Source: Heterodontus francisci
Taxonomy: Eukaryota
NCBI RefSeq assembly: GCF_036365525.1
Contig: NC_090376.1
Location: forward strand, 43,519,075 to 43,583,074
Length of the DNA: 64,000 nucleotides
Reading direction: 5' to 3'
The translations under genes and the position numbers were made by a program. Below the pieces are notes generated by a model that was given only the letters and a program-made list of their open reading frames with translations, made no database searches and was not told where the DNA came from. This document shows positions 10,145-59,469 of this stretch, in pieces (within the stretch, counting starts at the first letter, position 1; every line of letters starts with the position of its first letter).

Positions 10145-10277
10145 AAAAAATAAAATACTGCAGATGCCTGAAATCTGAAACAAGAACCGAAAATGTTGGA
10201 ACCATCCAACAAGCCAGGCAGTGTCCGTGGGGAAAGGAAAAAAGCTTATGTTTCAGGCATATCCCTTCATCTGAACA
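10145..10277 (-). mobile_element. Degenerate PLE terminal fragment
   Basis: Similar to 29097-29330 unit; decayed CAGATGA..GAAAC core on minus strand. Confidence 0.6.
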
Positions 10278-10785: not shown

Positions 10786-13700
10786 TCATTCATAGAACAT
10801 AGAACAGTACAGCACAGTACAGGCCCTTCGGCCCACGATGTTGTGACGACCCTTTAACCTACTCTAAGATCAAACTACCTACATACCCTTCATTCTACTA
10901 TCATCCATGTACCTATCCAAGAGTCGCTTAAATGTCCCTAATGTATCTGCTTCTACTACCACCGCTGGCAGTGCATTCCACGCACCCCACCACTCTCTGT
11001 GTAAAGAACCTACCGCTGACATCTCCCCTAAACCTTCCTCCAATCACCTTAAAATTATGCCCCCTGGTGATAGCCCTTTCCACCCTGGGAAAAAGTCTCT
11101 GGCTATCCACTCTATCTATGCCTCTCATCATCTTTTACACCTCTATCAAGTCACCTCTCATCCTTCTTCGCTCCAATGAGAAAAGTCCTAGCTCCCTCAA
11201 CCTTTCTTCATAAAACATGCCCTCCAGTCCAGGCAGCATGTTGGTAAATCTCCTCTGCACCCTCTCTAAAGCTTCCACATCCTTCCTATAAAGAGACGAC
11301 CAGAACTGAACACAATATTCCAAGTGTGGTCTAACCAGGGCTTTATAGAGCTGCAGCATAACCTCGCGGCTCTTAAACTCAATCCCCCTGTTAATGAAAG
11401 CCAACACCCCATACGCCTTCTTAACAACCCTATCAACTTGGGTGGCAACTTTGAGGGATCTATGGACGTGGACCCCAAGATCCCTCTGTTCCTCCACACT
11501 GTCAAGAATCCTGTCTTTAAGCCTGTATTCTGCATTCAAATTCGACCTTCCAAAATGAATCACTTCACACTTTTCCAGGTTGAACTCCATCTGCCACTTC
11601 TCAGCCCAGCTCTGCATCCTGTCAATGTCCCGTTGCAACCTACAACAGCCCTCCACACTATCCACAACTCCAGCAACCTTTGTGTCATCGGCAAACTTAC
11701 TAACCCAGCCTTCCACTTCCTCATCCAAGTTATTTATAAAAATCACAAAGAGCAGAGGTCCCAGAACAGATCCTTGTGGAACACCACTGGTCACCCAGCT
11801 CCATGCTGAATACTTTCCATCTACTACCACCCTCTGTCTTCTATGGGCCAGCCAATTCTGTATCCAGACAGCCAGATTTCCCTGTATTCCATGTGTCCTT
11901 ACTTTCTGAATGAGCCTTCTATGGGGAACCTTATCAAACGCCTTGCTAAAATCCATATACACCACATCCACTGCTCTTCCTTCATCAATGTGTTTTGTCA
12001 CATCCTCAAAGAATTCAGTAAGGCTTGTGAGGCATGACCTGCCCCTCACAAAGCCTTGCTGACTATCTCTAATCAAACTATGCTTTTCCAAATAATCATA
12101 AATCCTGTCTCTCAGAATCCTCTCCAATAATTTGCCCACCACCGATGTAAGACTGACTGGTCTGTAATTCCCAGGGTTATCCCTATTCCCTTTCTTGAAC
12201 AAGGGAATAACATTTGCCACTCTCCAATCATCTGGTACTACTCCAGTGGACAGTGAGGACGCAAAGATCATCGCCAAAGGTGCGGCAATCTCTTCTCTCG
12301 CTTCCCGTAATAACCTTGGGTATATCCCGTCTGGCCCCGGGGACCTATCTATCCTCATGTCTTTCAAAATTTCCAGCACATCCTCCTCCTTAACATCAAC
12401 CTGTTCAAGCATATCAGCCTGTTTCTCGCTGTCCTCACAAACGTCTGGGTCCCTCTCATTAGTGAATACTGAAGAAAAATATCCATTTAGGATCTCTCCT
12501 ACCTCCTCCGACTCCAGGCACAAGTTCCCTCCACTATCCCTGATCGGCCCTACCCTCACTCTGGCCATCCTCTTGTTCCTCACATAAGTATAGAACGCCT
12601 TGGGATTTTCCTTAATCCTACCCGCCAAGACTTTTTCATGTCCCCTTCTAGCTCTCCTAAGTCCATTCTTCAGTTCCTTCCTGGCTACCTTGTAACCCTC
12701 TAGAGCCCTTTCTGCTCCTTGCTTCCTCAACCTTAAGTAAGCTTCCTTCTTCCTCTTGACTAGCTGTTCCACGTCTCTTGTCATCCAAGGTTCCTTCACC
12801 CTACCATCCCTTCCTTGCCTCATCGGGACAAACCTATCCAGCAGTCGCAGCAAGTGCTCCCTAAACAACCTCCACATTTCTGTCGTGCATTTCCCTGAGA
12901 ACATTTGTTCCCAATTTAAGCTCCCCAGTTCCTGCCTAATAGCATGGTAATTCCCCCTCCCCCAATTAAATATTTTCCCATCCCGTCTGCTCCTATCCCT
13001 CTCCATGACTATAGTAAAGGTCAGGGAGTTGTGATCACTATCACCGAAATGCTCTCCCACTGAGAGATCTGCCACCTGGCCTGGTTCGTTGCCAAGCACC
13101 AAATCCAATATAGCTTCCCCTCTAGTCGGCCTATCTACATATTGAGTCAGGAAACCTTCCTGGACACACCTGACAAAATCTGCTCCATCCAAACTATTTG
13201 CACTAAGGAGGTTCCAATCAATATTAGGGAAGTTGAAGTCACCCAGGACAACAACCCTGTTACTTCTGCACCTTTCCAAACTCTGCCTCCCAATCTGTTC
13301 CCCCGTGTCTCTGTTGCTATTGGGGGGTCTATAGAAAACTCCCAATAAAGTGACTGCTCCTTTCCTGTTTCTGACTTCCACCCATACTGACTCAGTAGAC
13401 AAACCCTCCTCGACGACCTCCCTTTCTGCAGCTGTGATACTATCCCTGATTAGCAATGCCACTCCCCCACCTCTTTTACCTCCCTCCCTATTCCTTTTGA
13501 AACATCTAAACCCCGGAACATCCAACATCCATTCCTGCCCCTGTGATATCCAAGTCTTCGTAATGGCCACAACATCGTAGCTCCAAGTACTGATCCATGC
13601 TTTAAGTTCATAACCCTTATTCCTGACACTTCTTGCGTTAAAATAGACACACTTCAACCCATCATACTGGCTGCAACTTTGCCCTGTCAACTGTCTAACC

Positions 13701-14185
13701 TTCCTCGGAAACTCTCTGCACTCTGTATCTGCCTGCTCAACAGCTACCCCATCCACTGATCCGTAGCTCCGGTTCCCATCCCCCTGCCAAACTAGTTTAA
13801 ACCCTCCCGAAGAGCTCTAGCAAACCTCCCGCCCAGGATATTGGTGCCCCTCTAGTTCAGATGCAACCCGTCCTTCTTGTACAGGTCCCACCTTCCCCAG
13901 AAGGTATCCCAATGATCCACATATCTGAAGCCCTCCCTCTTACATTGGCTCTGTAGCCACGTGTTCAGCTGCACTCGCTCTCTGTTTCTAGCCTCACTAG
14001 CACGTGGCACCGGTATCAATCCTGAGATTACTGCTCTGCTCGTCCTGCCTTTTAGCTTCCAACCTAACTCCCTATATTCGCTTTTCAGGTCCTCATCCCT
14101 TTTCCTAGCTATGTCATTGGTACCGATGTGTACCACAACTTCTGGCTGCTCCCCCTCCCCCTTAACAATCCTGTAGACTTGATCA
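10786..14185 (-). mobile_element. Young CR1 LINE: ORF1 esterase fragment, near-complete ORF2 (APE endonuclease + RT) and 3' tail, 5'-truncated
   Basis: 873-aa ORF 11135-13756 (YFNARS, GDFNFP, SDHN, NYRPVSLTS, GVPQGSVLGP, FADD); ORF 13852-14136 HIGTND..DGLHLN (SGNH/GDSL esterase); CTATGTT-type tail repeats. Confidence 0.97.
11135..13756 (-). pseudogene. CR1 ORF2, endonuclease-reverse transcriptase, premature stop near C-terminus
   Basis: Open 873 codons; TAA where Tyr expected (DLIEV*KMMRGIDRV continues in frame). Confidence 0.93.
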
Positions 14186-17578: not shown

Positions 17579-17705
17579 GAAAGGTCACTGATCTGAAATG
17601 TTAACTCTGCTTCTCTCTCCATAGATGCTGCCAGACCTGCTGAGTTTTTCCAGCACTTTGTTTTTATTTCAGATTTCCAGCATCCACAGTATTTTGCTTT
17701 TATTT
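17579..17705 (+). mobile_element. PLE terminal fragment with 16-bp TSD
   Basis: TSD AAGGTCCAGGGCCCTT (17563-17578) / AAGGTCTAGGGCCCTT (17706-17721). Confidence 0.8.
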
Positions 17706-23436: not shown

Positions 23437-24000
23437 GTGGGGACCGCCTATTTCCACCTCACTAACATTGCCCGATTTCACCTTGTCCCATCTCATCTGC
23501 TGCTGAAACCCTCATTCATGCCTTTGTTACCTCTAGATTTGACTATTCTAATGCACTCCTGGCTGGAGTTCCACATTCTACTCTCCACAAACTTGAGGGC
23601 ATCCAAAACTGTGCTGCCCATGTCATAACTCGCACCAAGTCCCCATCATCCCTATGCTCGCTGACCTAATTGTCTCCCAGTCAAACAACATCTTGTTTTA
23701 AAGTTCTCTACCTTGTTTTCAAATCTCTCCATGGCCCCAAGGCCCCAAGCTCTGGAATACCCTCCCTACACCTCTCTGCCTCCCCACCTCATTTTCCTCC
23801 TTTAAGGCACTCCTGATCTTATATATCCTTTTGTGGCTCTGTGTCATACTTTGTTTATGTTCCTCCTGTGATGTGCCTTGGGATATTTTATAATATTAAA
23901 GGCGCTATATAAATATAAAAGCAAAATACTGTGGATGCTGGAAATGTAAAATAAGAACAGAAAGTGCTGAAATACTCAGCCGGTCTGGCAGCATCTGCAG
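23437..24000 (+). mobile_element. L2 LINE 3' fragment followed by PLE terminal fragment (23917-24000)
   Basis: TAYFHLTNIAR, LIHAFVTSRFDYSNALLAG; GCGCTATATAAAT tail; then AAAAGCAAAATACTG..GGCAGCATCTG. Confidence 0.75.
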
Positions 24001-26138: not shown

Positions 26139-26244
26139 TTATCAGACGTTACTTGACTGTTGGCATGGTGATCCCAAAGAACGGCCTACTTTCACTGAGC
26201 TTGTGGAAAGGCTTGGAGATTTATTGCAAGCAAATGCTCAACAG
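26139..26244 (+). CDS. FLT1: VEGFR1-like exon, end of kinase domain
   Basis: tctag|T..CAG|gtaat, 106 nt; [35 protein letters not shown]. Confidence 0.88.
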
Positions 26245-26965
26245 GTAATAAGGCTTTTCTGCCAATGGACTGGAATTCTTTCACAGTTAGATATAATTTT
26301 GAAACATTTCAACTTAAAGGTTTGTTATTAAGTTTCAGGTTCAAATTGTCTTAAAGTGAAAAAGTGATATTCATGTCACGAATTATTTTTAGTGATTTTA
26401 ATTACAGTAATTTTCATGCACCTTAGGTTTATCCAGACAAATGGATTTTCTGTATTTTGCAAAGTATATGCCAGGAAAAATATAATTTTGGGAAAACTCA
26501 TAGAAGTATTGGAATAATTGATAATCATCTCAGCCACAAGACATTGATATAAAGTTATCATATTTGAAAATTAACTCTTTATCAATAATTTGCTTAACTC
26601 TCCCAATGTATTGCAGTTTTATTTCAGTGTACAAATTTATGTTAGAGCTTTCAGGATTCGCAGGCTAGATATTACAGTCTTCACCTATTCAAGCAATATC
26701 TCTTTGATCTTATTAAATGGTACAATAAAGAAATTATAATGAGCCAGTATTGTGTATTTATTGAAATGGCTCTTGATAACACTTGTGTTTACAATATATA
26801 AAACAATTTAGTATTTTAAAGTTATCATTGTTCAAAACATTGGATGGTGTAACGAGTAAGAACACTCCATTTGCACTTCTGGGACCTGAGCAGAAACCTA
26901 GCCCAGAATGATGGAATGATAAAACCTTCCTCCTTTGTAAGAGTCCTATATTAAGTGAATATATG

Positions 26966-27693
26966 GGGCTGGATTTTTTAAAAGAGGTCGAGGTTCGGAT
27001 TGGAGGCGGGCAAGCCCACATTTTGGCAATGCCGGCCTCCATGCCAGTTCCCCGCCGCAATCTCAACCCCGAACCATTTTGAGAGAGGCCGCTTGGGGTC
27101 AGAACGGGTGCCCACTAGCAAGAGGTGGATAGCCAACTTAGGTTAATTAGATACGATTAAGGAGCCTATAAGGCCCTGTTCCTGCACCGACTGGGATTTC
27201 CAATCGGCAATACGCGCAGCCCACATTGGTCTGGACCATGTCCAGGCCAACATATGGGTTCAGGATGGGAAGGGGTTGTGGAGGGAGCAAGATGAATCAA
27301 GCGAGGAACCCCCCCCCTCCACCCTGCACCCATAATGGCCACTGAGCCACAGTGGCGGCTGCTGACCATCCCAGGGATTTTCCCTTCCAGAATCATGGCC
27401 AGCCAGCTGTGGCATGTTAAAAATTAAAATAAACCTACTTGCCCTTGACCCTGCTGTCTGCATCCTCGCATCGGCAGCTCCCACCTCAGCCAGTGGGGCT
27501 GCCAATCTCTCAATGCTAGAGGACCTCACATTGGCCCTTCAGCATCAGGAGCCTGCCCACCATCCCTGATTGGATGGCAAGCCCGCTGCTTGCCTTTAAT
27601 TAGCCGAAGCCTTGAAAATTGCATGCTGTGCGGAGCCGGGACCCAGAACAAACCCCATGTCCGGTTCCTGAACCCTGGTTAAAAATTCAGCCC
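26966..27693. mobile_element. Harbinger-type MITE
   Basis: TIRs GGGCTGGATTTTT / AAAAATTCAGCCC; flanks ATG/AAG; related to 53505-54195. Confidence 0.8.
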
Positions 27694-29096
27694 AAGTAGT
27701 CTCAATTAGTTCCTAATGCTATAAGCTCACAATACAAAATTTCTATTAATTTACCAAAAATGTGCCATTCTCACTCAGAGAGAATGGCCAATATGAATGA
27801 TGAAAATGTTGCATTGGTTCAATAGAGGGTGTTAATCTGAGGATTGGATTATGCAACACTGGGGAATATTTCCCCTGCTATTTCTAAATAAGTCATAAAA
27901 ATGGATGCAAAGAACACAGTTATGAGCTTGCTTCACATAAGGGGCTGGAGTTTGTAGTCCCGCATACGGGATGAACACATTCAAATAGAGACAGAGGAGA
28001 AGAAAGAAGGGGAAAGGTTTGAGGTAATAGCTGGAGTTCAGTTACTGGCTTTGGGTTTGATGTAAAGTCTTTGATTGAAGTTAAGTCTTGCAGTTCTCGT
28101 TGGGGCCCAGTGCACACTTACAAACTTCTTTGGCTGTTCCTCTGCCTTGAGGCTTGAGTTACTTCCGTGGGTCCCTGGAACTTCGTGAGAGAGAGAGAGA
28201 GAGAGACAGGGTGAGACCTTCCTTCTCTTTTGTCTTCAAATTGCAGTCTGTTTTCAAAACTGTTCTAAGTCAGGCACAATTCAAAAAAATACTGGGTCAG
28301 CAGGTTCTTTGGGGGGGTGGGATTTGCTGGACTTCAAAGCTTGCTGGATGCACTCGGTGGAGGGTGAAGTGCTGTCTCTTACACAGAGATGTGAATCATC
28401 ACTGTTGTCCAGACCAATCTTGTTAATTGAATCAGTGAGCAGTTCCATTGTCTCTCTTATTCAGCTGTCTTTTAGAATGCAAATGTGCAGCCATGTTTTC
28501 AGCCACTGTTGTGGTCTGTTCAAACAAGTTATTTCAAGTCCTGTAACAGTTTAAAATAATGTTCCATATGATGAAATTAATATGTCCCATTTTTGGCAGG
28601 TGTGATTTCTACCTCCACATCCAGTGGAATGAAATGCAATATTAAGACATCATTTCATTATAAAAATAGAAAGGAGAGAAAGTACAGGAAAACACACATG
28701 CATATCTCTCATTCATTCTCATTCATTCAGAAATCCTAAAAATTGTTACAGCCTGTCTTTCCTTTGTAGCAGTGCTGCTTTAAACTGCCCCTTTTCCCTT
28801 GAGGTGGATCTGAGATAGTTATGTGTTGCCCAAAGGGGGTTGAAGTTTCTTCACTATCAGCCTGCAATACGTTGGGAATGGGCATCCCAATAAACATGTG
28901 ATTTTTGGGAAGTTTGCAGTTTGCATATTTCCATGACCGCCTAGGGTGCATTTATTCCTGTTGAGGTCTGCAGAGGGAGGGTTAGATTTAATTAGCCCTG
29001 GTTTGGCTCATGAGAATCGGCAGTGGGTGGATCCACTCTGAACTCTCTTGCAGTGGTCTGATGAGGCATGCAAGGGCATTTCACTTTAGGGTATAT

Positions 29097-29330
29097 AAAA
29101 GCAAAATACTGCGGATGCTGGAAATCTGAAATAAAAACAAGAAATGCTGGAACCACTCAGCAGGTCTGGCAGCATCTGTGAAAAGAGAAGCAGAGTTAAC
29201 GTTTCGGGTCAGTGACCCTTCTTCGGAGTTCCGAAGAAGGGTCACTGACCCGAAACGTTAACTCTGCTTCTCTTTTCACAGATGCTGCCAGACCTGCTGA
29301 GTGGTTCCAGCATTTCTTGTTTTTATTTCA
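29097..29330. mobile_element. Palindromic PLE-end insertion with hammerhead-like core, inside the Gypsy element
   Basis: Perfect 101-bp arms 29127-29227 / 29230-29330; duplication ATTTCACTTTAGGGTAT at 29078-29094 and 29325-29341. Confidence 0.88.
29226..29264 (+). ncRNA. Putative minimal type I hammerhead ribozyme (PLE-type)
   Basis: GAGTT-CCGAAGA-A-GGGTC(ACT)GACCC-GAAA-CG-TT-AACTC: stem I, core variant, stem II, palindromic ACGT for stem III. Confidence 0.6.
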
Positions 29331-30553
29331 CTTTAGGGTATGGTTGGTTCCCTTTTTTCCTGACTGTGGGGTTGATTCTATGCTAATCTTCCCTTTGTCC
29401 TCTGGGACACTCATGCATGCAGGTATTTGTCCAGATTCTACTGCACTCCCCTGCGGCACTTCGACTAGTTGAGGCAGCACCCTCACGGTTTCTCTGCTCT
29501 CTTGAGGACTTTCTTTGTCTCTGAAGGTTTCTGTAAATGATGTTAGTAACTCGAGCGGGGTGCTTCTGGTGTCTGTATTTACATAGGAGGATGTGGGGTC
29601 TAATCTTTCCAACATTTCGAGATTGGCTGTAGGGGAGTTCATTTGGGAATCCTCCAGAAATTCCTTTAACCTGTCCTCTTTGTCCCTTTTTTCCCCTTTC
29701 CTTTCTAACTTCTTGCCAGTCCTGTGCCTGTCTGTCCCCTTTTGTTCTCGGTGGGGGTCCCTGACAATTCACCAGCCCTCTGCTGGAGGATTTCCCAAAA
29801 GCCGATATAGGACTTAGGGGTGTACATTTCACTGTAGGATGGGGTTTCCTCTCAACCTGGCACATGTGGCAACTCCTACAGTAGTCCACCACATCTTTGT
29901 GGAGTTTTGGCCAGTCAAACTGCAGTCTTATGCAGGCTTTGCTTTTTCGTATACCAACATGTACAGACATTGTAATCTCATGGGTCATTCTTAATATTTC
30001 TCTCCGGTACCTCTGTGGCACCACTAACTGGTGAACCACTGTCCTCTTTGTCCTCAGGTCTATGAGGAGAACTCCACTTCCACCTCATTCTTTAAATAAT
30101 AGCAATCAGGGACTCCCTCTACTTAAGTTTCAAACTGTGCTAACTCTCTCGATACTGGGTCAGCTTGCTGAGCCTCAGCTGGCGAAGAGTCATTTAATTA
30201 ATTCCCTGGGTCCGCTAACTTTCCAAAGAAAGTCTCAAACAGACAGACCTCATGGTCATCTGCCTACAGTGCCAATTCAGTCTCCTCTGGGGGAGCTGGT
30301 TTGGTCATGGCCTGATTCACTACACATCCAGGGGGACTGTCTCCTGCCACTGCCCTGTCTTTCTGACCTTCTGCTGTCTCTCTTTCACTACTGGGGAAGC
30401 TACCACCTTCGTCCCCGCCAGATCATTACCTAGGAGCAGGTCAACCCCATCTACAGGCAAACTAGGGACAATCCCTACAGTCACCGGTCCCAAAACTAGA
30501 TCGCATTCCAAGTGCACCCCATGTAAAGGTACAGGCATACACTGCCCTCCAAT

Positions 30554-30906
30554 GGGCAGCACAGTGGCACAATGGTTAGCACTGCAGCCTCACAGCTCCA
30601 GTGACCTGGGTTCGATTCTGGGTACTGCCTGTACGGAGTTTGCAAGTTCTCCCTGTGACCGTGTGGGTTTTCGCTGGGTGCTCTGGTTTCCTCCCACAGC
30701 CAAAGACTTGCAGGTTGATAGGTAAATTGGCCATTGTAAATTGCCCCTAGTATAGGTAGGTGGTAGGGGAGTTAAGGGAAGGTGAGGATTTAGTAGGAAC
30801 ATGGGATTAATGTAGGGTTAGTATAAATGGGTGGTTGATGGTCAGCACAGACTCAGTGGGCCAAAGGGCCTGTTTCAGTGCTGTATCTCTAAAATAAAAA
30901 TAAAAT
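30554..30906 (+). mobile_element. HE1-like V-SINE inserted in the Gypsy protease region
   Basis: tRNA-like head GGGCAGCACAGTGG..GGTTCGATTC; V-domain GTGGGTTTTCGCTGGGTGCTCTGGTTTCCTCCCACA; CR1-like tail. Confidence 0.9.
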
Positions 30907-32551
30907 ATCATTCACCACCATTTTGGTGTTCACTGCACTCTCTGGGGGAAAGGTCAGGCCTTTTCCCAATAAAAGGGATCTAGTGGCCCCTGAGGGTTAC
31001 TATGGGCTTGCTTACCCTACTCGAGAGGTATGGGGTTACTCTCCCTTCAGACACAAAATCCTGATAACCCTCAGGGATCCTATTAAAGTTACCTGCTCCT
31101 ACAGCAGTATGTTTTTGGGCCTTACTACTGCTGCAGTTAAAGCCACAGCTTGTTCAGCTGTGCTTTCCATCAGGGTCCCTCCTCCGTCACTGAGCGGGTA
31201 TGCCCTGATTAACCCTACAGCCTTTCCCCATAGTTTCCAGCAGTCAGCTCTCAGATGACCTGCTTTATTACAATGGAAGCACACAGGTCTCCAAGTCTCA
31301 CTCCTACTTACAGCACCTTCCTTTTTGGCTCGAGGAGGGCCCCCTGTGTCTCCTGCTTTTCTCACTCTCCCAGGACTGCTTGGGCTTCTATCACTTTCCC
31401 ATCCTTGTCCTTTTCGAATTTGTGGGGGTGACTAGGAAAGGTTTTTCCCTGGGGAACCGACTTATATATTAGGGCAAACTTATCAGCCAAAACTGCAGCT
31501 TGCCTTGCTCTATGAACTGTTTATTCTTCCACATGAGTCTTTATGGAGAGTGGGAGCGAGTTTTAAAATTCCTGTAGCAGAATTACCTCTCTGAGGTTTT
31601 CATAGCTGGGCTGCACTTTTAAGAGCCCTCAACTACCTGTCGAAAGCCAGCTGCTTACTTCTCTCAAACTCCAAGTAAGTTTGATCAGCTTGCTTCTTGA
31701 GAGTTTGAAACTTCTGGAGGTAGGCTTCTGGTACTAACTCATGTGCCCGAGGATAGCACTGTTTGTCAGTTCATAATTTGATGAACTCTCATCTGGCAAC
31801 AGGGAATAAACCTCATGGACTTTTCCTGTTAGCTTACTTTGCATCACAAGAATCGAAGTTTCAACTGGCCACTTTAACTGCAAGTTTTCAAAAGATACAA
31901 AAAATACTTCCACGTCTCCCTCATTGAATTTGGGATCAGTTGGGAAAATTTTAACAATTTGGTACACAGCCCCGAATTACTATTCTCCATATTGGCCATG
32001 CTTTCACTGGGGTTACTCTATTGTCCCCTAGCTAACTCAAGCCACCTCAGCTCTCTTGCCTCATGTTTCTTCTGGAAGGTTCCTTCTTTCTCTCTCTGCT
32101 GCCTTTCTTTCTCTCTTTCCTCTCTCTTTTTCTTTCCTCTGTCTCTCCCTTTCTCTCTCTCTTTCCCTGTCTTCTAATTCAAGTTTCCTCTGCTCCAATT
32201 GTATCTTTGCTAGCAATACCCTGTCGGATTCTATTTCTAACCCTGTCTCTGCTTCTTCAGATTCGAGGGAAAAATGGTTGGCCACCAGTCTTAGCAGTTC
32301 GGACTTTCTAGCCTTGGAACAGAAAGTGATCACAAACCACTCAGCTATATTTCTCAACTCCTCCATAGATAGTGTTTTTAACTTACCCCAAGTTACTTCA
32401 CCCTGGCTTGGGTAGTTACTGGCTTCAGTCACAGACATGTTAGTTTTCTAGCACACACAACCACAAGAAAGCCTGTATTGAAATCTTTTCTCTTTTTGAT
32501 CAGGATCAATTTGACTTCCCATTTCCAATTTCTTGTTTGTCTGTGGGTCCA

Positions 32552-32571
32552 ATCCTGGATGCTAGCCCCCA
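32552..32571 (-). other. Primer-binding site, tRNA-Pro-like
   Basis: TGGGGGCTAGCATCCAGGAT, 6 nt after the 5' LTR, resembles tRNA-Pro PBS TGGGGGCTCGTCCGGGAT. Confidence 0.75.
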
Positions 32572-33670
32572 AATTTCTGTTATCACCAGGTGAAAAGGGG
32601 TCTCGGGTTCCCTCTCAGCCTTTTCCTGGTTTGACCGTAACAGGGTTTAATTTTTAAAACACTGTGTTTTAGCTTCCCTCTTAGTGAGCCCTTGTTCACT
32701 GCTCTCTAATTGTTATGGAAAAGAAATCAACCAGACAGGTTTTCTCATATTTAAACAAGAAAGGTGTAAGTTTATTAACCTTAAAACTCTAATTCAGTTA
32801 AAACTACTAAAAATACACCAAAACAACCACACTAGCATGCATACCTGATTAACACACACGCAAATAGAGACAGAGGAGGAGAAAGAAGGGGAAAGGCTTG
32901 AAGTAATAGCTGGAGTTCATTTATTGGCTTTGGGTTTGATGTAAAGTCTTTGATTGAAGTTAAGTCTTGCAGTTCTCGCTGGAGCCCAGTGCACACTTTC
33001 AAACTTGTTTGGCTGGTCTTCTGTCTTGAGGCTTGAGTTACTTCCGTGGGTCCCTGGAACTTTGCGTAAGAGAGAGAGAGACAGAGAGAAACTTTCCTTC
33101 TCTTTTGTCTTCAAATTGCAGTCTGGTCTCAAAACTATTCTGTGTCAGGCACAATTCAAAAAAAAAACTGGGCCAGCAGGTTCTTGGTGGGGTGGGGGGG
33201 GGGGGGGGGGGGGATGCGGTTGCTGGACTTCAAAGCTTACTAGACGCACTTGGTGGGGGGTGGAGTGCTGTCTCTTACATAGACAAGATGTGGATCACCA
33301 CTGTTGCACAGACCAATCTTGTTATTTGAATCAGTGAGCAGTTCCATTGTCTCTCTTATTCAGCTGTCTTTTAGAATGCATGTGCAGCCATGTTTGCAGC
33401 CACTGTCCTTTCGAATGTAAATATGAAGCCATGTTTTTAGCCACTGTTGTGGTCTGTTCAAACAAGTTATTGCAAATCCAGTAAAAGTTCAAAATAATGT
33501 TCCATATGATGAAATTAATATGTCCCATTTTTGGCAAGTGTGGTTTCCATCACAACACCAAAAATACATATTTGCCATGTTCCCCCCCACCTCGCCAACT
33601 ACACTACCAATGCAGAGTTGACCCTTCCCCCCCCACCGCCCCCCCACAACCACACTACACTAAAGATGCA

Positions 33671-34500
33671 GGGCTGGATGTAGTTCTCCTCCCAACACTG
33701 GGCTATGCGGCGGGGTGGGTGGCGGAAGATCGGAGTGGCAGCGGCCCACCACGGCACCCGACGCAGGGATTCCCAGTCGGGAAGATCCGTGGCGGGCCCT
33801 CCATCATTCTACAACAGGACCTGACTTTACATATTTAAATTAGCTGTTTGCATTAGTTAAAATCTAATCTGCAGCGCTCTTACCTGCAGATCTGGATCTT
33901 CAGTGCGACAGGCGGCACTCATGCACCTTTACTTTCCCGTCCAGGGAAAGCTGGCACTACCGAGGTGGGGAAGGGGAGAACTCAGCATTTGTACAGTAGT
34001 GGTGGGGGGGGGTGGGGGGACGAAACAGGGTGAACGCTACATGTTTAGTGTAGTGGGGCGGGGAAGGGGTGAACTCTGCACTTTGTGCAGTTGTGGAGAG
34101 GGGTAAGAGGTCAACTCTGCACTTAGTGCAGTTGGGGGAAGAAGGGGTCAACTCTGCATTGGAGTGTAGTTGTGGAGGGGACAGGGCAAATATGTATTTT
34201 TGGTGTAGTTGTAGGGGGCGGGGACGCAACTCGGCAGTTTATTCGCAGGGCTGGCAGTCCTTTAAAAATGGCACCAGCTGCTGCGCAGAAACAGTTGACG
34301 CAGTTCACGGCATTGCCGAGGCCGTCTTGCCACATGAGTGAGGGGGCGGGGTGGGTGGTGGCCGCCCTGCATAAGATAATGAGCCACTGGGATCAAGCTC
34401 ATGGCGGCACGGCAGCACGGCGGCACGCTGCCCGTGGATGCCGGCCGCCATTTTTTACACCCGCCGTAGCTCCCGATGACGGGACTACAAAATCCAGCCC
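33671..34500 (+). mobile_element. Harbinger-type MITE, complete, 3-bp TSD
   Basis: GCA|GGGCTGGATGTAG ... CAAAATCCAGCCC|GCA. Confidence 0.88.
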
Positions 34501-35045
34501 GCAGAGTTCAACCCACTACACGACAAATTCAGAATGGCCCCCTTCTCCGCCTCAGTGGTGCCAGCTTTCCCAGGATGGGAAAGTGAAGGCATGTGAGTAC
34601 TGCCTGTCGAGCTGAAGATCCGGAACTGCAGGTAGGATTACTCACATTAGATTTTAATTAATGCAAGCTGCTAATTTACATATTTAAAGTCGGGTCCCTT
34701 TGCAGAGCAGCGGAGGGAGCGCCACAGAGCTTCCCCGCCGCTGGGAAGATCAGGCCCGGCAATCCAGGCCGTCGGGTTCCATGGCAGGCCGCTGCTGCTC
34801 TGATCTTCCGGCACCAACCCCCTCCCCCCCAGCATGGAGCCTGACGTCAGGAGGAGAACAAAATTCAGCCCTAGGAGTGGAGGAAATCTTCCATTTTTAG
34901 ACAGCCCTAGATTGAACCTAACCAACTCTGCTCCCGGCTAAGTTCATCTAAAGCCATTATTGGCTGCAAAGAGGAAAATTTTTCACCACTTTTAAATACA
35001 AGCTTTTTTTTATATTTAAAACAAATGAAATGTTTTAATTTGCAG

Positions 35046-35185
35046 GATGGAAAGGAGTACATCCCACTGAGTACAATGCTGGTGTCGAATAGCTTTCGTT
35101 TTTTGGTCCCAACGTCACCAGATTCCTGCTTGGGAGAAGAAATGGAGAATTCAAAATTTAATTATGAACGTACAGGAAGCTTTGG
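35046..35185 (+). CDS. FLT1: VEGFR1-like exon, C-terminal tail with YIPL (Y1169-equivalent PLC-gamma site)
   Basis: tgcag|GAT..GG|gtaag, 140 nt; DGKEYIPLSTMLVSNSFRFLVPTSPDSCLGEEMENSKFNYERTGSF(G). Confidence 0.85.
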
Positions 35186-37243
35186 GTAAGATATATTACT
35201 CTACATCTGGAAAATGGAAGTATTTACTGAAAAGATTACCTTTGCCAAAAAGTGAAACTGCTATTGTTGTAAGTGCAGAGGTAATTTACAAACTGCACTC
35301 TGCACAGTCCCCGAGCATGTCTTAAAATTCAACAAATTAAGATCCATTTTAATCCATCTGCAATTATTTTCCTTGAGACAGAAATAAGATTTAAAAATTG
35401 CCATCTTTTTGTGCTGCCAACAATTGTTTATAGCAGCTACCTTAAAATGTTAACTGCAAAGAACTGCAATGTAATGCAGGAAATAACAATTATTTAATCA
35501 GAGCAAAGGGATAGAACTCAAATCAGCACAGTCATTTTTTACTTAAAAAGGTGTGTATACATTAGACAGAGAGAAACTGTTAATCTTACCCTCTGCTGGA
35601 CTCTTGGGTTGTCTGCTGCGTTACTGACTAGAGATAAGGTGCTGGGCTGAAAAGAATGAGAAAAAATTGTTACGTCCATATACTTCCTGGTTGTCATATA
35701 TCAGCATTGACAGGGTTATGTTTGCCAGCTAGGTGTCTCTTCATTTTGGTTGAAAAAGGCTGCATGAGTGCAGAAGATAGTTAGGGAGAAAAAAAACTAA
35801 GCCTGTATTTCTGCAATCTTTGTTGAATCTGGATTTTAAAAAATATTGTTTGAACTTTGTTACATTTACTTTGCTAGTCGGCAGTCTATCCCATAGATCT
35901 AATCTAAGTGCTAAATTGTTTCCCCACTTACTTTTAGCTTTTGGTTTTGGCAACTTATAATCATGTCATCCAGTTTTTCTGATTTAGTGCAACAAAAAAA
36001 CACTCCAACATCCAATAATTTGCTTCATGATTTGTAAAACCTAACTTGTACCTCCCTTTAGTGTTGCATCAGCCTCCCTTCATTGATTTAAGAGCTAGTT
36101 TCATTCTCATTGGCCATTTTCCCAATGTCTTTATATCTTTCATAAGTAGAGCATCCCAACTGGCTCAGTACTGCAGATGGTGAGGGAGATTTTAATGGGA
36201 GGGCAAGATCGGCAGATAGAAAGCCTGAGGTGGGCAGCACACTGTTCTGAGGGAGGCCAGGCCTGGCTGGTTTTAACTGATAAACCTCATTTTAACATTT
36301 GAAATCTGTCGCCTATCTGAAGCTGGCAAGAATGACGTGAAGGCTGTGCCAAACAGATGCTGGTGTGGACAGGGAGCGGAAGGGGAAGGGCAGAGCCATG
36401 GATTCCCACCAAAGAACAAAAAATATTGCTTACTTTAGCTTCTTCTGGCCACTCTGCTGCTTCCCACCAAGTTTTTTCCAGCAGGTTTGACTGCGGGTGG
36501 GCCTCCCTCTGAGTTGTAAAAATCATGTTTGATGCCGATGATGTCACAGGGCCCTGGCTTAGGCCCTCACCTGTCTGCAGCAGGAGCCTTGACTGACTTC
36601 AAAGTGGGTGAAGATAAAATATTGCTGGATGGAACTGGTACAACCTCAGACTCGATGGATTTTAACCCCTCCCATTCACCATAGGGTATGGGTACAGTTA
36701 AAATCAATCCCATAGTCTTGCAATTCTTTTGAGATATTATGTAGCTAGATATATGGATTTACTTGTAACATTCAAGATTGACAATTACTGCCAAACAGTG
36801 CAGTAGAATTTAGTGAACCCACATTTTTTTTCCCTACTTCAGATTACTAAATGATATAACTGGATTTGCTATTTTTAGCACTGATAGTCCTTACTTTACA
36901 TTTTAATATTAAATGCCATTTCCCATTTTGTCTGCTCAGTGTAGGTCTGTTTTCAGTTAAATGCAGAAAGGTCCAGCATCCATCTAGGTTTGGGCAATTG
37001 TCGACATTTTTCTTCTGTACCTATATTGATGGCATGATTAAATATTCTGCAAAGGACATTAAAGTCAAGTTGTAATTCTTTGGATCATTAAACAGAATCC
37101 AATGACAAGATTTTGCTTATATTTAAATCCTTTTCATGTTTCCACTATTGTAAAGAGAGTTATGAACGATGAGATTTTTTGCCTTTACTTAATCTCTGAC
37201 TTGCAGTTCCATTTTAATGTGTAACATATTGCCGTCACTGCAG

Positions 37244-37328
37244 ATATATTAACACTTGTATGAAGAAACAACCGCAGAATTTAAAGACATTTGAAGAGTT
37301 ACCACTTGAATTTACAACTTTAACAGAT
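37244..37328 (+). CDS. FLT1: VEGFR1-like exon, C-terminal tail (Y1213-equivalent)
   Basis: tgcag|A..GAT|gtaag, 85 nt; YINTCMKKQPQNLKTFEELPLEFTTLTD vs FLT1 YVNAFKFMSLERIKTFEELL. Confidence 0.85.
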
Positions 37329-52035: not shown

Positions 52036-53076
52036 GTAAAGCAGCACAATATAAAATACGTAATATATTTGTTAAAAGGAGTAATTATAACAGGAAACTG
52101 GAACCAGGAAAAAAAAGAGACATGGTTCAGAAAATGAAATGGACCAGAGCAGGGAATACATGCAGTTTGGCACTCTGTGTTTGTCTGCACTAAATTTGCA
52201 GGAAAGTGATTAAGTAGGAAGTCCTTTTTGTATTGAAATGCTTTTTAAAAGTATGACTAAATTTGTGCAGCATAAACATCATTTCAAATTGTGATGGCCA
52301 AGCAAACTTGCTGTAGCAGCTTAATTCCTGAGTAAACCTTTGCTATTTACGACTATTCCATTAATTATCTGGTGTCTTTGTCATTCATTTTAACATAATT
52401 AGGTTGCAAAATTTAGAATAAAAATACTGGCAGGTTTTTTTACGTGAAATCCTTCCTGCTCTTTCCTGTTTCCTAAAGCATTTTTCTGAACTTTATTTGC
52501 AAAACAGAAATAGATCCAGCTTGTAGAGTTTTTTTTAACAGCTGTAACTGCTATAGATTGACATAAATGGACTTTTAATAACAAAATATATGTGCAGAGA
52601 CTGAACTGAAAAGAGTAAAGTCGTCAAATATGGTGAGGAAAGATCAATGTTAAGTAACAATAATTTTTTCAAAAGAAAAGAGAAAGGGAGGTTGGAAGAA
52701 ATGGTATAAAATGATTCATAAGTGATTCACAACAGAAGTAAAAGTAATACAGTGAGTACAGTCAAAGGACGTAATGTTCTTGCCTGTATTTGGCGAAAGC
52801 ATACATTTTGGTGCATAATCCTATATGTTGGTCCCTGGTGTAATAAAAAATTGGCTTTGTACACATCGCACACCATTAGTAAAGCAACTTAAACATTTTT
52901 ACTTTCATGTTTTGGCTAGCGTTGTACCATGAATAGGAACTAAACATGAAATAGAGGATATCCTAACAGGTTGTTCTGCCAATTGATTTTTTTTCTCTAA
53001 ACTAATTTATGCAAAGAAACAAAGCACAGCACATAACAGGAGAATGAGAAATGAAGGTAAACTCTAATGATAAGGT

Positions 53077-53274
53077 AAAAGCAAAATACTGCAGATGCTG
53101 GAAATCTGAAATAAAAACAAGAAATGCTGGAAATATTCAGCAGGTCTGGCAGCATCTGTGGAGAGAGAAGCAGTGCTGATGAAGGGTCACTGACCTGAAA
53201 CATTAACTCTGCTTCTCTCTCCACAGATGCTGCCAGACCTGCTGAATATTTCCAGCATTTCTTGTTTTTATTTC
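53077..53274. mobile_element. Palindromic PLE-end insertion with canonical CTGATGA..GAAAC core (53176-53201)
   Basis: Inverted arms; TSD TCTAATGATAAGGT / TCTAATCTTAAGGT. Confidence 0.85.
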
Positions 53275-53504
53275 TAATCTTAAGGTTTTGTGTTTATGCA
53301 AGGCAATCTATAATAAGAAAGTGTTTGCATTTAAAAAAGTACTCATAGAGTCCCAACTTGTTTCATAAGCCATGGAACAAAAACAAAATACTGCAGATGT
53401 TGGAAATAAAAACAGAAAATGCTGAAAATACTCAGAAGATCTGGCAGCATCTGTGGCGAGTGAAACAGAACTGTTTGGAGGAAACGTCATTGACCTAAAA
53501 CATT

Positions 53505-58969: not shown

Positions 58970-59105
58970 CAGTTCTGCTGAAGGGTCACTGACCTGAAAC
59001 ATTAACTCTGCTTCTCTCTCCATGGATACTGCCAGACCTGCTGATTGTTTCCAGCATTTCTTGTTTTTATTTCAGATTTCCAGCATCTGCAGTATTTTGC
59101 TTTTA
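58970..59105 (+). mobile_element. PLE terminal fragment with mutated hammerhead-like core
   Basis: AGTT-CTGCTGA-AGGGTCACTGACCT-GAAAC-ATT-AACT. Confidence 0.8.
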
Positions 59106-59469
59106 TAAAGATCTAGGCACTTGGATCCAACTTGGAGGCTCTGGAAATAGCTTTACAGTTTAACCAATAGGGATACTGATAACACATAAGCCTGATAAAT
59201 TGACACATATTTACAGCATGGACAACGTTTTTTTTTGATAACTTCAAGAATCAAACTTACTAAAATTCGTATGAACAGGCTTTTCAGCATTCTGTTCTGC
59301 CTTCCTCCAAATTTATTGAGGCTATTAATTTCACCCCTCAAGAGGGATATAACCTGAGCAGAATAGGCCAAAAGGTACCAGAGTTTTTCTACACTGCTTA
59401 TCATAATACAAGGAATAAAGTGATAGGCTGAGTACCAGATTCTGGAAGAATCTACTTAATCTTACTCCC

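Follow-up and report, generated by a model that had tools for sequence, protein, structure and literature searches.

A perfect palindrome with a hammerhead-like motif in Heterodontus francisci reads as a young, head-to-head insertion of Penelope-like element ends

The window analysed here, a stretch of 64,000 nucleotides of Heterodontus francisci DNA, contains an exact palindrome with a hammerhead-like motif at its centre. The locus raises the question of whether such a palindrome is a mobile element in its own right, copied as a unit, or the footprint of a larger retroelement. Inverted-repeat comparison gave two arms of 101 nt each, 100% complementary and spaced by 2 nt, exactly as described in an earlier reading made from the letters alone (hereafter the sequence-only reading); the runner-up inverted repeat within 5 kb was 20 nt long with 80% identity. 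The palindrome is flanked by a 17-nt direct repeat with 100% identity. The first 6 nt of the right copy overlap the arm, which explains why the duplication had earlier been given as 11-17 bp. A 32-nt tail between the left copy and the left arm also belongs to the unit and has no mirror copy on the right. Parent coordinates take the opening base of hammerhead stem I as +1. When aligned to an intact parent copy from a tandem array, each arm showed 4 differences; the right arm corresponds to parent +1 to +104 and the left arm, including the tail, to parent +4 to +136 (Table 1). These alignments support the Penelope origin proposed in the sequence-only reading. Its proposal of a recent insertion with a target-site duplication is also supported, as is the explanation it held in reserve, a 5'-truncated, inverted end of a Penelope-like element (PLE). 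The locus is a young insertion of an abundant, apparently Neptune-type PLE, not a discrete mobile element, and is ordinary in being one among tens of thousands of PLE stubs.

Table 1 Features of the palindromic stub and its surroundings (positions in the window)
Feature	Position	Strand	Basis or remark
VEGFR-family gene stretch between two motif-found exons	26140..37310	+	approximate; stub inside
Target-site duplication, left copy	29078..29094	+	17 nt, 100% identical to right copy
One-sided PLE tail, 32 nt, parent +105 to +136	29095..29126	-	alignment to intact parent copy
Left arm, parent +4 to +104	29127..29227	-	inverted repeat and parent alignment; most of stem I 5' strand missing
Head-to-head junction	29226..29230	+	A 29227 common to both arms (right arm's parent +1)
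Minimal type I hammerhead-like motif	29227..29263	+	matches the minimal hammerhead description in PMC4209133; predicted cut after 29259
Right arm, without tail	29230..29330	+	with 29227-29229, parent +1 to +104; last 6 nt within target duplication
Target-site duplication, right copy	29325..29341	+	17-nt direct repeat
Integrase zinc-binding domain frame, part of an old LTR-type retroelement	29383..30084	-	PF17921, E 9.9e-16

Copies that reach upstream of the motif continue into a 3' UTR and then into an open reading frame. The junction between tail and ORF was found as an exact pattern at 1,555 sites genome-wide, tandem arrays among them, and the tandem period was 3,288-3,296 nt (3.29 kb) in all five stretches examined (four arrays). 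The array ORF encodes 916 aa with a reverse transcriptase (RT) followed by a C-terminal GIY-YIG domain (RVT_1, E 6.3e-06; GIY-YIG, E 0.0018; both below the Pfam curated cut-offs). A single ORF with RT and GIY-YIG, tandem pLTR-like arrays and a one-sided 32-nt tail mark the family as an EN+ PLE. The parent translation carries a CxxxCxxC motif between RT and EN; a CX2-5CxxC linker motif is given for the Neptune and Nematis clades in the accessible text of PMC8557442, and on this motif the parent would be classed as Neptune type. Parent arrays (L201-L205) lie at C1:104.04 Mb, C1:23.22 Mb, C2:19.30 Mb and C2:53.33 Mb; a 924-codon open frame is present in three of them and a late stop in one. In L203 a short upstream ORF (parent +56 to +149) lies in frame and stops about 7 codons before the ATG of the long ORF, which is preceded by an acceptor-like stretch. 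An intron spanning the tail is possible in the parent; assembled contigs gave no splice joint.

Family copies were counted by exact patterns in a genome of 6.0 Gb. Exact 25-mer hammerhead cores numbered 38,418, a longer core pattern was found 32,021 times, and the arm pattern spanning +51 to +85 gave 54,905 matches, whereas the exact centre of the locus occurred 195 times. The sequence-only reading had proposed a discrete, non-autonomous, ribozyme-bearing unit. On that view, a palindromic retroelement of about 235 nt would be passed on whole by master loci. A whole-unit search seemed to agree with this: the best 40 of 1,053 candidates were full-length with 95-100% identity, and the same centre was present in 24 of the 28 scored pairs among 30 copies from that search, in keeping with the existence of 195 exact centres. 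These matches, however, had been sorted by how closely they resembled the query, and the fixed boundaries that they suggested were rejected as ranking bias after junction-blind samples. Among 145 candidate head-to-head pairs, scored where at least 30 positions were shared, 89 were adjacent and 41 of these junction-blind. The 41 junction-blind pairs contained 36 junction types, and the centre of the locus was found among them only at the locus itself.

The position of the tail and the make-up of the arms also bear on the discrete-unit reading. Of the 89 adjacent pairs, 86 had the tail on one arm and not on the other, as did 39 of the 41 junction-blind pairs. For the exact-centre pairs (n=7, from 30 loci picked by their centre letters and blind to the tail), the tail lay on the +1 arm five times and on the +4 arm twice, and the exact-centre copies belonged to several subfamily haplotypes, with both arms of a copy showing the same one. 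Copies of one master would all carry the tail on one side and inherit the master's asymmetries; neither was seen, and the discrete-unit reading therefore fails. The unit, moreover, lacks the upstream TATA-like block described below, its RNA is predicted to form one long hairpin, and the fixed internal structure expected of copies from master loci, as in SINEs, was not found. We consider a discrete element of this kind very improbable. Random breakpoints had been named in the sequence-only reading as evidence against a discrete unit, and this held in part: breakpoints were variable (36 types in 41 pairs) but not fully random, as 5' ends are concentrated at the base of stem I.

The arms of a pair tend to share their variants. 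At +78/79, subfamily variants were concordant between arms in 26 of 30 young junction-blind pairs, whereas 10,000 shuffles averaged 8.6 and reached 19 at most, and private variants were common to both arms in several copies. Because one centre occurs with the tail on either side and in several subfamilies, and because the arms are concordant, the mirror half is likely to be made anew at each insertion. Concordance could instead arise from homogenisation of the palindrome after insertion. The four discordant pairs of the 30 need two templates or later mutation. At five loci (L033, L072, L115, L212 and L264) the head-to-head arms differ at subfamily sites, and these are possibly two-template or two-event insertions.

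Other family members were observed in the window. An older head-to-head stub at 53076-53274 has a different junction, arms from about +38 and +1 that are identical over 58 compared positions, and a one-sided tail. Solo fragments with 76-92% identity lie at 10146-10229, 17579-17703, 23915-23997, 53379-53469 and 58980-59106. In 340 kb of blind-picked DNA 29 arms were counted, which suggests roughly half a million arms genome-wide.

The ends of the arms were analysed in the first 100 arms carrying the +51 to +85 pattern in the first 10.8 Mb of contig C1, a sample that includes at least one duplicated locus. The outer ends were bimodal, near +99 to +103 and near +135 to +141. Of 30 copies, 28 had a target duplication, which measured 13-16 nt in 22 of them, and short templated extras resembling fold-back products were present at many head-to-head joints. 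We are confident that the unit consists of two head-to-head hammerhead-to-tail ends of a Neptune-type PLE, likely from one insertion event and likely immobile as a unit. In the proposed mechanism, the GIY-YIG nuclease of the element would make a staggered cut in the target, and both target 3' ends would prime reverse transcription at internal starts, at about +99 to +103 and +135 to +137. Both cDNAs would be templated by the same RNA, or by RNA of the same source, and would extend to the RNA 5' end at +1 to +5. Short microhomology or fold-back would then link them head to head, so that the perfect 2-nt centre would be one of many possible joints. In vitro, reverse transcription by a PLE of Anolis begins at two internal sites that delimit the tail, with cleavage and extension of both target strands (PMC11167929). 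By analogy, the two classes of outer ends appear to match these internal starts. PLE steps beyond first-strand synthesis remain unvalidated (PMC11167929).

An alternative origin of the inverted arm is self-priming, by fold-back, of a single cDNA or on an antisense template, with no second priming at the target. Such a route was put forward for the Adineta Penelope elements, whose head-to-head junctions are ascribed to self-priming on an antisense template in the accessible part of PMC3846280. It would account for the high arm concordance (26/30) and for the fold-back-like templated insertions at many junctions. However, in the copy at the locus a tail-less cDNA cannot supply the tail on the other arm, the outer ends coincide with the two known start classes and a duplication lies on both flanks, and a few pairs have discordant arms. 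Self-priming without a second target priming is accordingly judged improbable. A mixed route, in which a fold-back meets a second short cDNA, is possible and is counted within the preferred explanation, priming from both target ends.

The palindrome might also have been created during amplification or assembly. Long-read libraries can yield perfect palindromes, and the assembled contigs of 8 public runs included none that bridged the locus or an empty allele. Arguing against an artefact are the one-sided tail, the target duplication, the many similar insertions elsewhere and the adjacency of the flanks in related host elements; its probability is close to negligible. The stub was inserted within an old LTR-type retroelement, and the sequences on its two sides adjoin each other in L020 and L022; in L022, a related host element, they are adjacent with an overlap of about 12 nt and 64-66% identity.

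Among the 100 sampled arms, 40 ran more than 30 nt upstream, 31 were short with an inverted neighbour and 29 were short and solo. Of 80 arms reaching +7, 34 ended inside the following 10 nt, a rate of 4.2% per nt; the rate was 0.45% per nt in the 44 nt on the downstream side and 0.47% per nt in the 28 nt on the upstream side. These 5' ends scatter over +1 to +5. Genome-wide, 17,060 of the 38,418 cores extend 10 nt upstream, compared with about 33,000 predicted from the per-base loss downstream. Only 2 of 96 arms stopped around the predicted hammerhead cut site; with no pile-up there, hammerhead cleavage was rejected as the source of the template 5' ends.

By familiar consensus motifs, the hotspot resembles an initiator and has, 29-30 nt upstream, a TATA-like block; in 19 old copies this block is more conserved than the bases after it. 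The base before +1 was G in 2,760 copies genome-wide and A or T in 2,927, a clear excess of G, and 47 of the 100 A/T copies listed had A. In the sample the excess of G before +1 was weak (21/48 vs 9/38, p=0.07). The excess could reflect cap-directed additions; joining can also supply a G. Hotspot-ended arms are likely to be complete cDNAs of the RNA 5' end, and the balance tips slightly towards a transcription start at +1. Against such a start, 7 arms from 4 loci continue into the ORF for 1.6 kb or more, and not one of them begins at +1. It is conceivable, though short of probable, that about half of the ribozyme-bearing copies are 'strong-stop' cDNAs of an RNA that starts at the first base of stem I, with internal reverse transcription from both target ends beginning 100-135 nt downstream and running off at the capped 5' end.

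At the foot of stem I, the hotspot could instead reflect a block to RT, a block to an exonuclease or a splice acceptor, a choice that bears on the mechanism only. The upstream bases resemble a branch point and acceptor and are conserved in old copies, 5' ends spread over several positions rather than one, and a D. virilis intron ends at helix I (PMC4209133). Among 30 loci picked for the commonest upstream letters, however, no upstream exon was held in common, and none of six canonical donor patterns was found in the unit. In the same 30 loci the upstream letters were varied fold-back products or target DNA, and a spliced exon 1 giving a longer stem I was rejected. Copies that run from the tail to the ORF stop at the hotspot in 2 of 20 cases, compared with the 34 of 80 above (p=0.008), which argues against an intrinsic RT block. 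A block or acceptor is possible but doubtful. The D. virilis element has a TATA-less promoter with a start upstream of the intron ending at helix I (accessible text of PMC2377424 and PMC4209133), and this arrangement, taken as an analogue, does not appear to match a start at stem I.

The hammerhead-like motif reads as it had been laid out in the sequence-only reading, with the core at 29231-29237, an extra A at 29238, stem II at 29239-29243/29247-29251, GAAA at 29252-29255 and the GUU triplet at 29257-29259, after which the cut is predicted. It combines the 4-bp stem I of the parent, a U4C core, a 5-bp stem II and a self-complementary 4-mer in place of helix III. The 5-bp stem I reported previously was right for the four parental pairs. 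The parent has C before +1, so that G 29226, and with it the fifth pair, is a product of the junction. The complete stem I noted for the host-sense strand is therefore not special: it includes one junction-made pair, and the 101-bp hairpin should, by prediction, prevail over the ribozyme fold. For the palindromic RNA the folding model gives a single hairpin of -213.6 kcal/mol; stems I and II can be imposed only at a cost of +55.1 kcal/mol, and the predicted probability of stem I is about 1e-38. As the hairpin is favoured by this margin, the motif is likely silent at the locus, a passenger locked in the 101-bp hairpin according to the folding model. A perfect hairpin of this length in a pre-mRNA could draw ADAR editing. 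In the parent, a further long hairpin is predicted 3' of the hammerhead, from +53 to +127; one class of outer ends lies inside it and the other just beyond its foot. This predicted hairpin is a candidate binding site for the protein of the element.

The Rfam scan suggested for the motif gave no hammerhead family at E<=10, and its 11 matches to other families were all below the gathering scores. In 23 distinct copies, stem pairing was kept in 95.7% of cells, only the helix II foot shifted (AU 7, GU 12, GC 4), and covariation over the whole structure was not above shuffles (124/500 and 103/500). The canonical U4 is present in 16 of 19 old copies and the young subfamily carries C4. Across subfamilies, U4 gives way to C4 in the young, ORF-intact subfamily, and the helix II foot passes from AU through GU to GC. 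U4C lowers activity in vitro yet leaves a viroid infective, according to the accessible text of PMC3088659. Minimal PLE hammerheads cleave weakly as dimers (PMC4209133), and PLE hammerheads cleave with the help of protein and are dispensable for insertion in vitro (PMC11167929).

The host gene had been named FLT1. The window does contain a VEGFR-family gene on the + strand, with kinase exons found by motif between 10587 and 60900, at about 10.6, 16.4, 16.7, 22.6, 26.2, 37.3, 52.0 and 60.9 kb, and by their positions the stub is likely intronic. The scores of one exon were nearly tied (VEGFR1 79.0, VEGFR2 78.9 bits) and another favoured VEGFR2 (61.0 vs 53.3 bits), so that FLT1 is not established; given this mixed likeness, the gene is possibly KDR-like. 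Elsewhere in the window, an 893-codon open frame with LINE endonuclease and RT domains lies on the - strand at 11135-13816. A 70-bp tandem repeat array of more than 3 kb was observed at L113:31-3457.

The architecture of the locus is already published, and the locus adds another member. An inverted, 5'-truncated copy with a one-sided tail and a duplication is the standard PLE footprint in the accessible text of PMC3846280, PMC8557442 and PMC8969392. EN+ PLE insertions, as represented by Pen2a_Av (PMC3846280) and the scheme in PMC8557442, likewise have a head-to-head inverted 5'-truncated copy with a flanking duplication, a 30-40-nt tail at one end only, a palindrome at the inverted junction, and a putative TATA and initiator in the pLTR, as far as the available parts of both sources go. 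Compared with Pen2a_Av of Adineta, both copies are here cut to about 100-135 nt without ORF, and the duplication is 13-16 nt in the present family but 8-10 nt in the Adineta examples in the available text of PMC3846280. Poseidon of Anolis carolinensis (PAc) likewise has two internal RT starts at the borders of the tail and extends both target strands, and nothing reported for it points to hammerhead cleavage as setting the end of the template (PMC11167929). Unlike PAc, the present parent has the CxxxCxxC linker, and its long ORF begins about 172 nt after +1 and not inside stem II. The pile-up of 5' ends at stem I found in the present family is not described in the main text on PAc (PMC11167929).

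The motif itself resembles the minimal hammerheads of metazoan PLEs, which likewise have a 4-bp helix I, an extra base before helix II, a G-C at the helix II foot and self-complementary bases (15.2-16.2) for helix III, and are mostly single, sometimes in close pairs on opposite strands (PMC4209133). It differs from them in the U4C and GUU triplet of the young subfamily, and its helix II has 5 bp as against 7-8 bp in Schistosoma (PMC4209133). Non-LTR retrozymes are likewise short, non-coding and PLE-related with a type I hammerhead. They are head-to-tail tandem repeats, however, with one hammerhead per unit and processing to circular RNA, in the accessible text of PMC7229834 and bioRxiv 10.64898/2026.07.22.740005, whereas the locus is a single head-to-head pair; identity with a non-LTR retrozyme was therefore rejected. 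No description of twin priming or of a strong-stop product for PLEs was found in the accessible literature searched.

If the strong-stop account is true, roughly 17,000 truncated copies bearing the promoter could act as non-coding masters of fixed-size stubs, and strong-stop synthesis with internal priming would account at once for the inverted head-to-head pairs, the tail on one side only and the surplus of solo minimal hammerheads across animal genomes. The locus is useful as a clean read-out of PLE insertion, and the lasting part of the analysis is the counted 5' hotspot together with the arm concordance. The family is young, its source arrays are intact and its datable junctions number tens of thousands, which makes twin priming and strong-stop synthesis testable.
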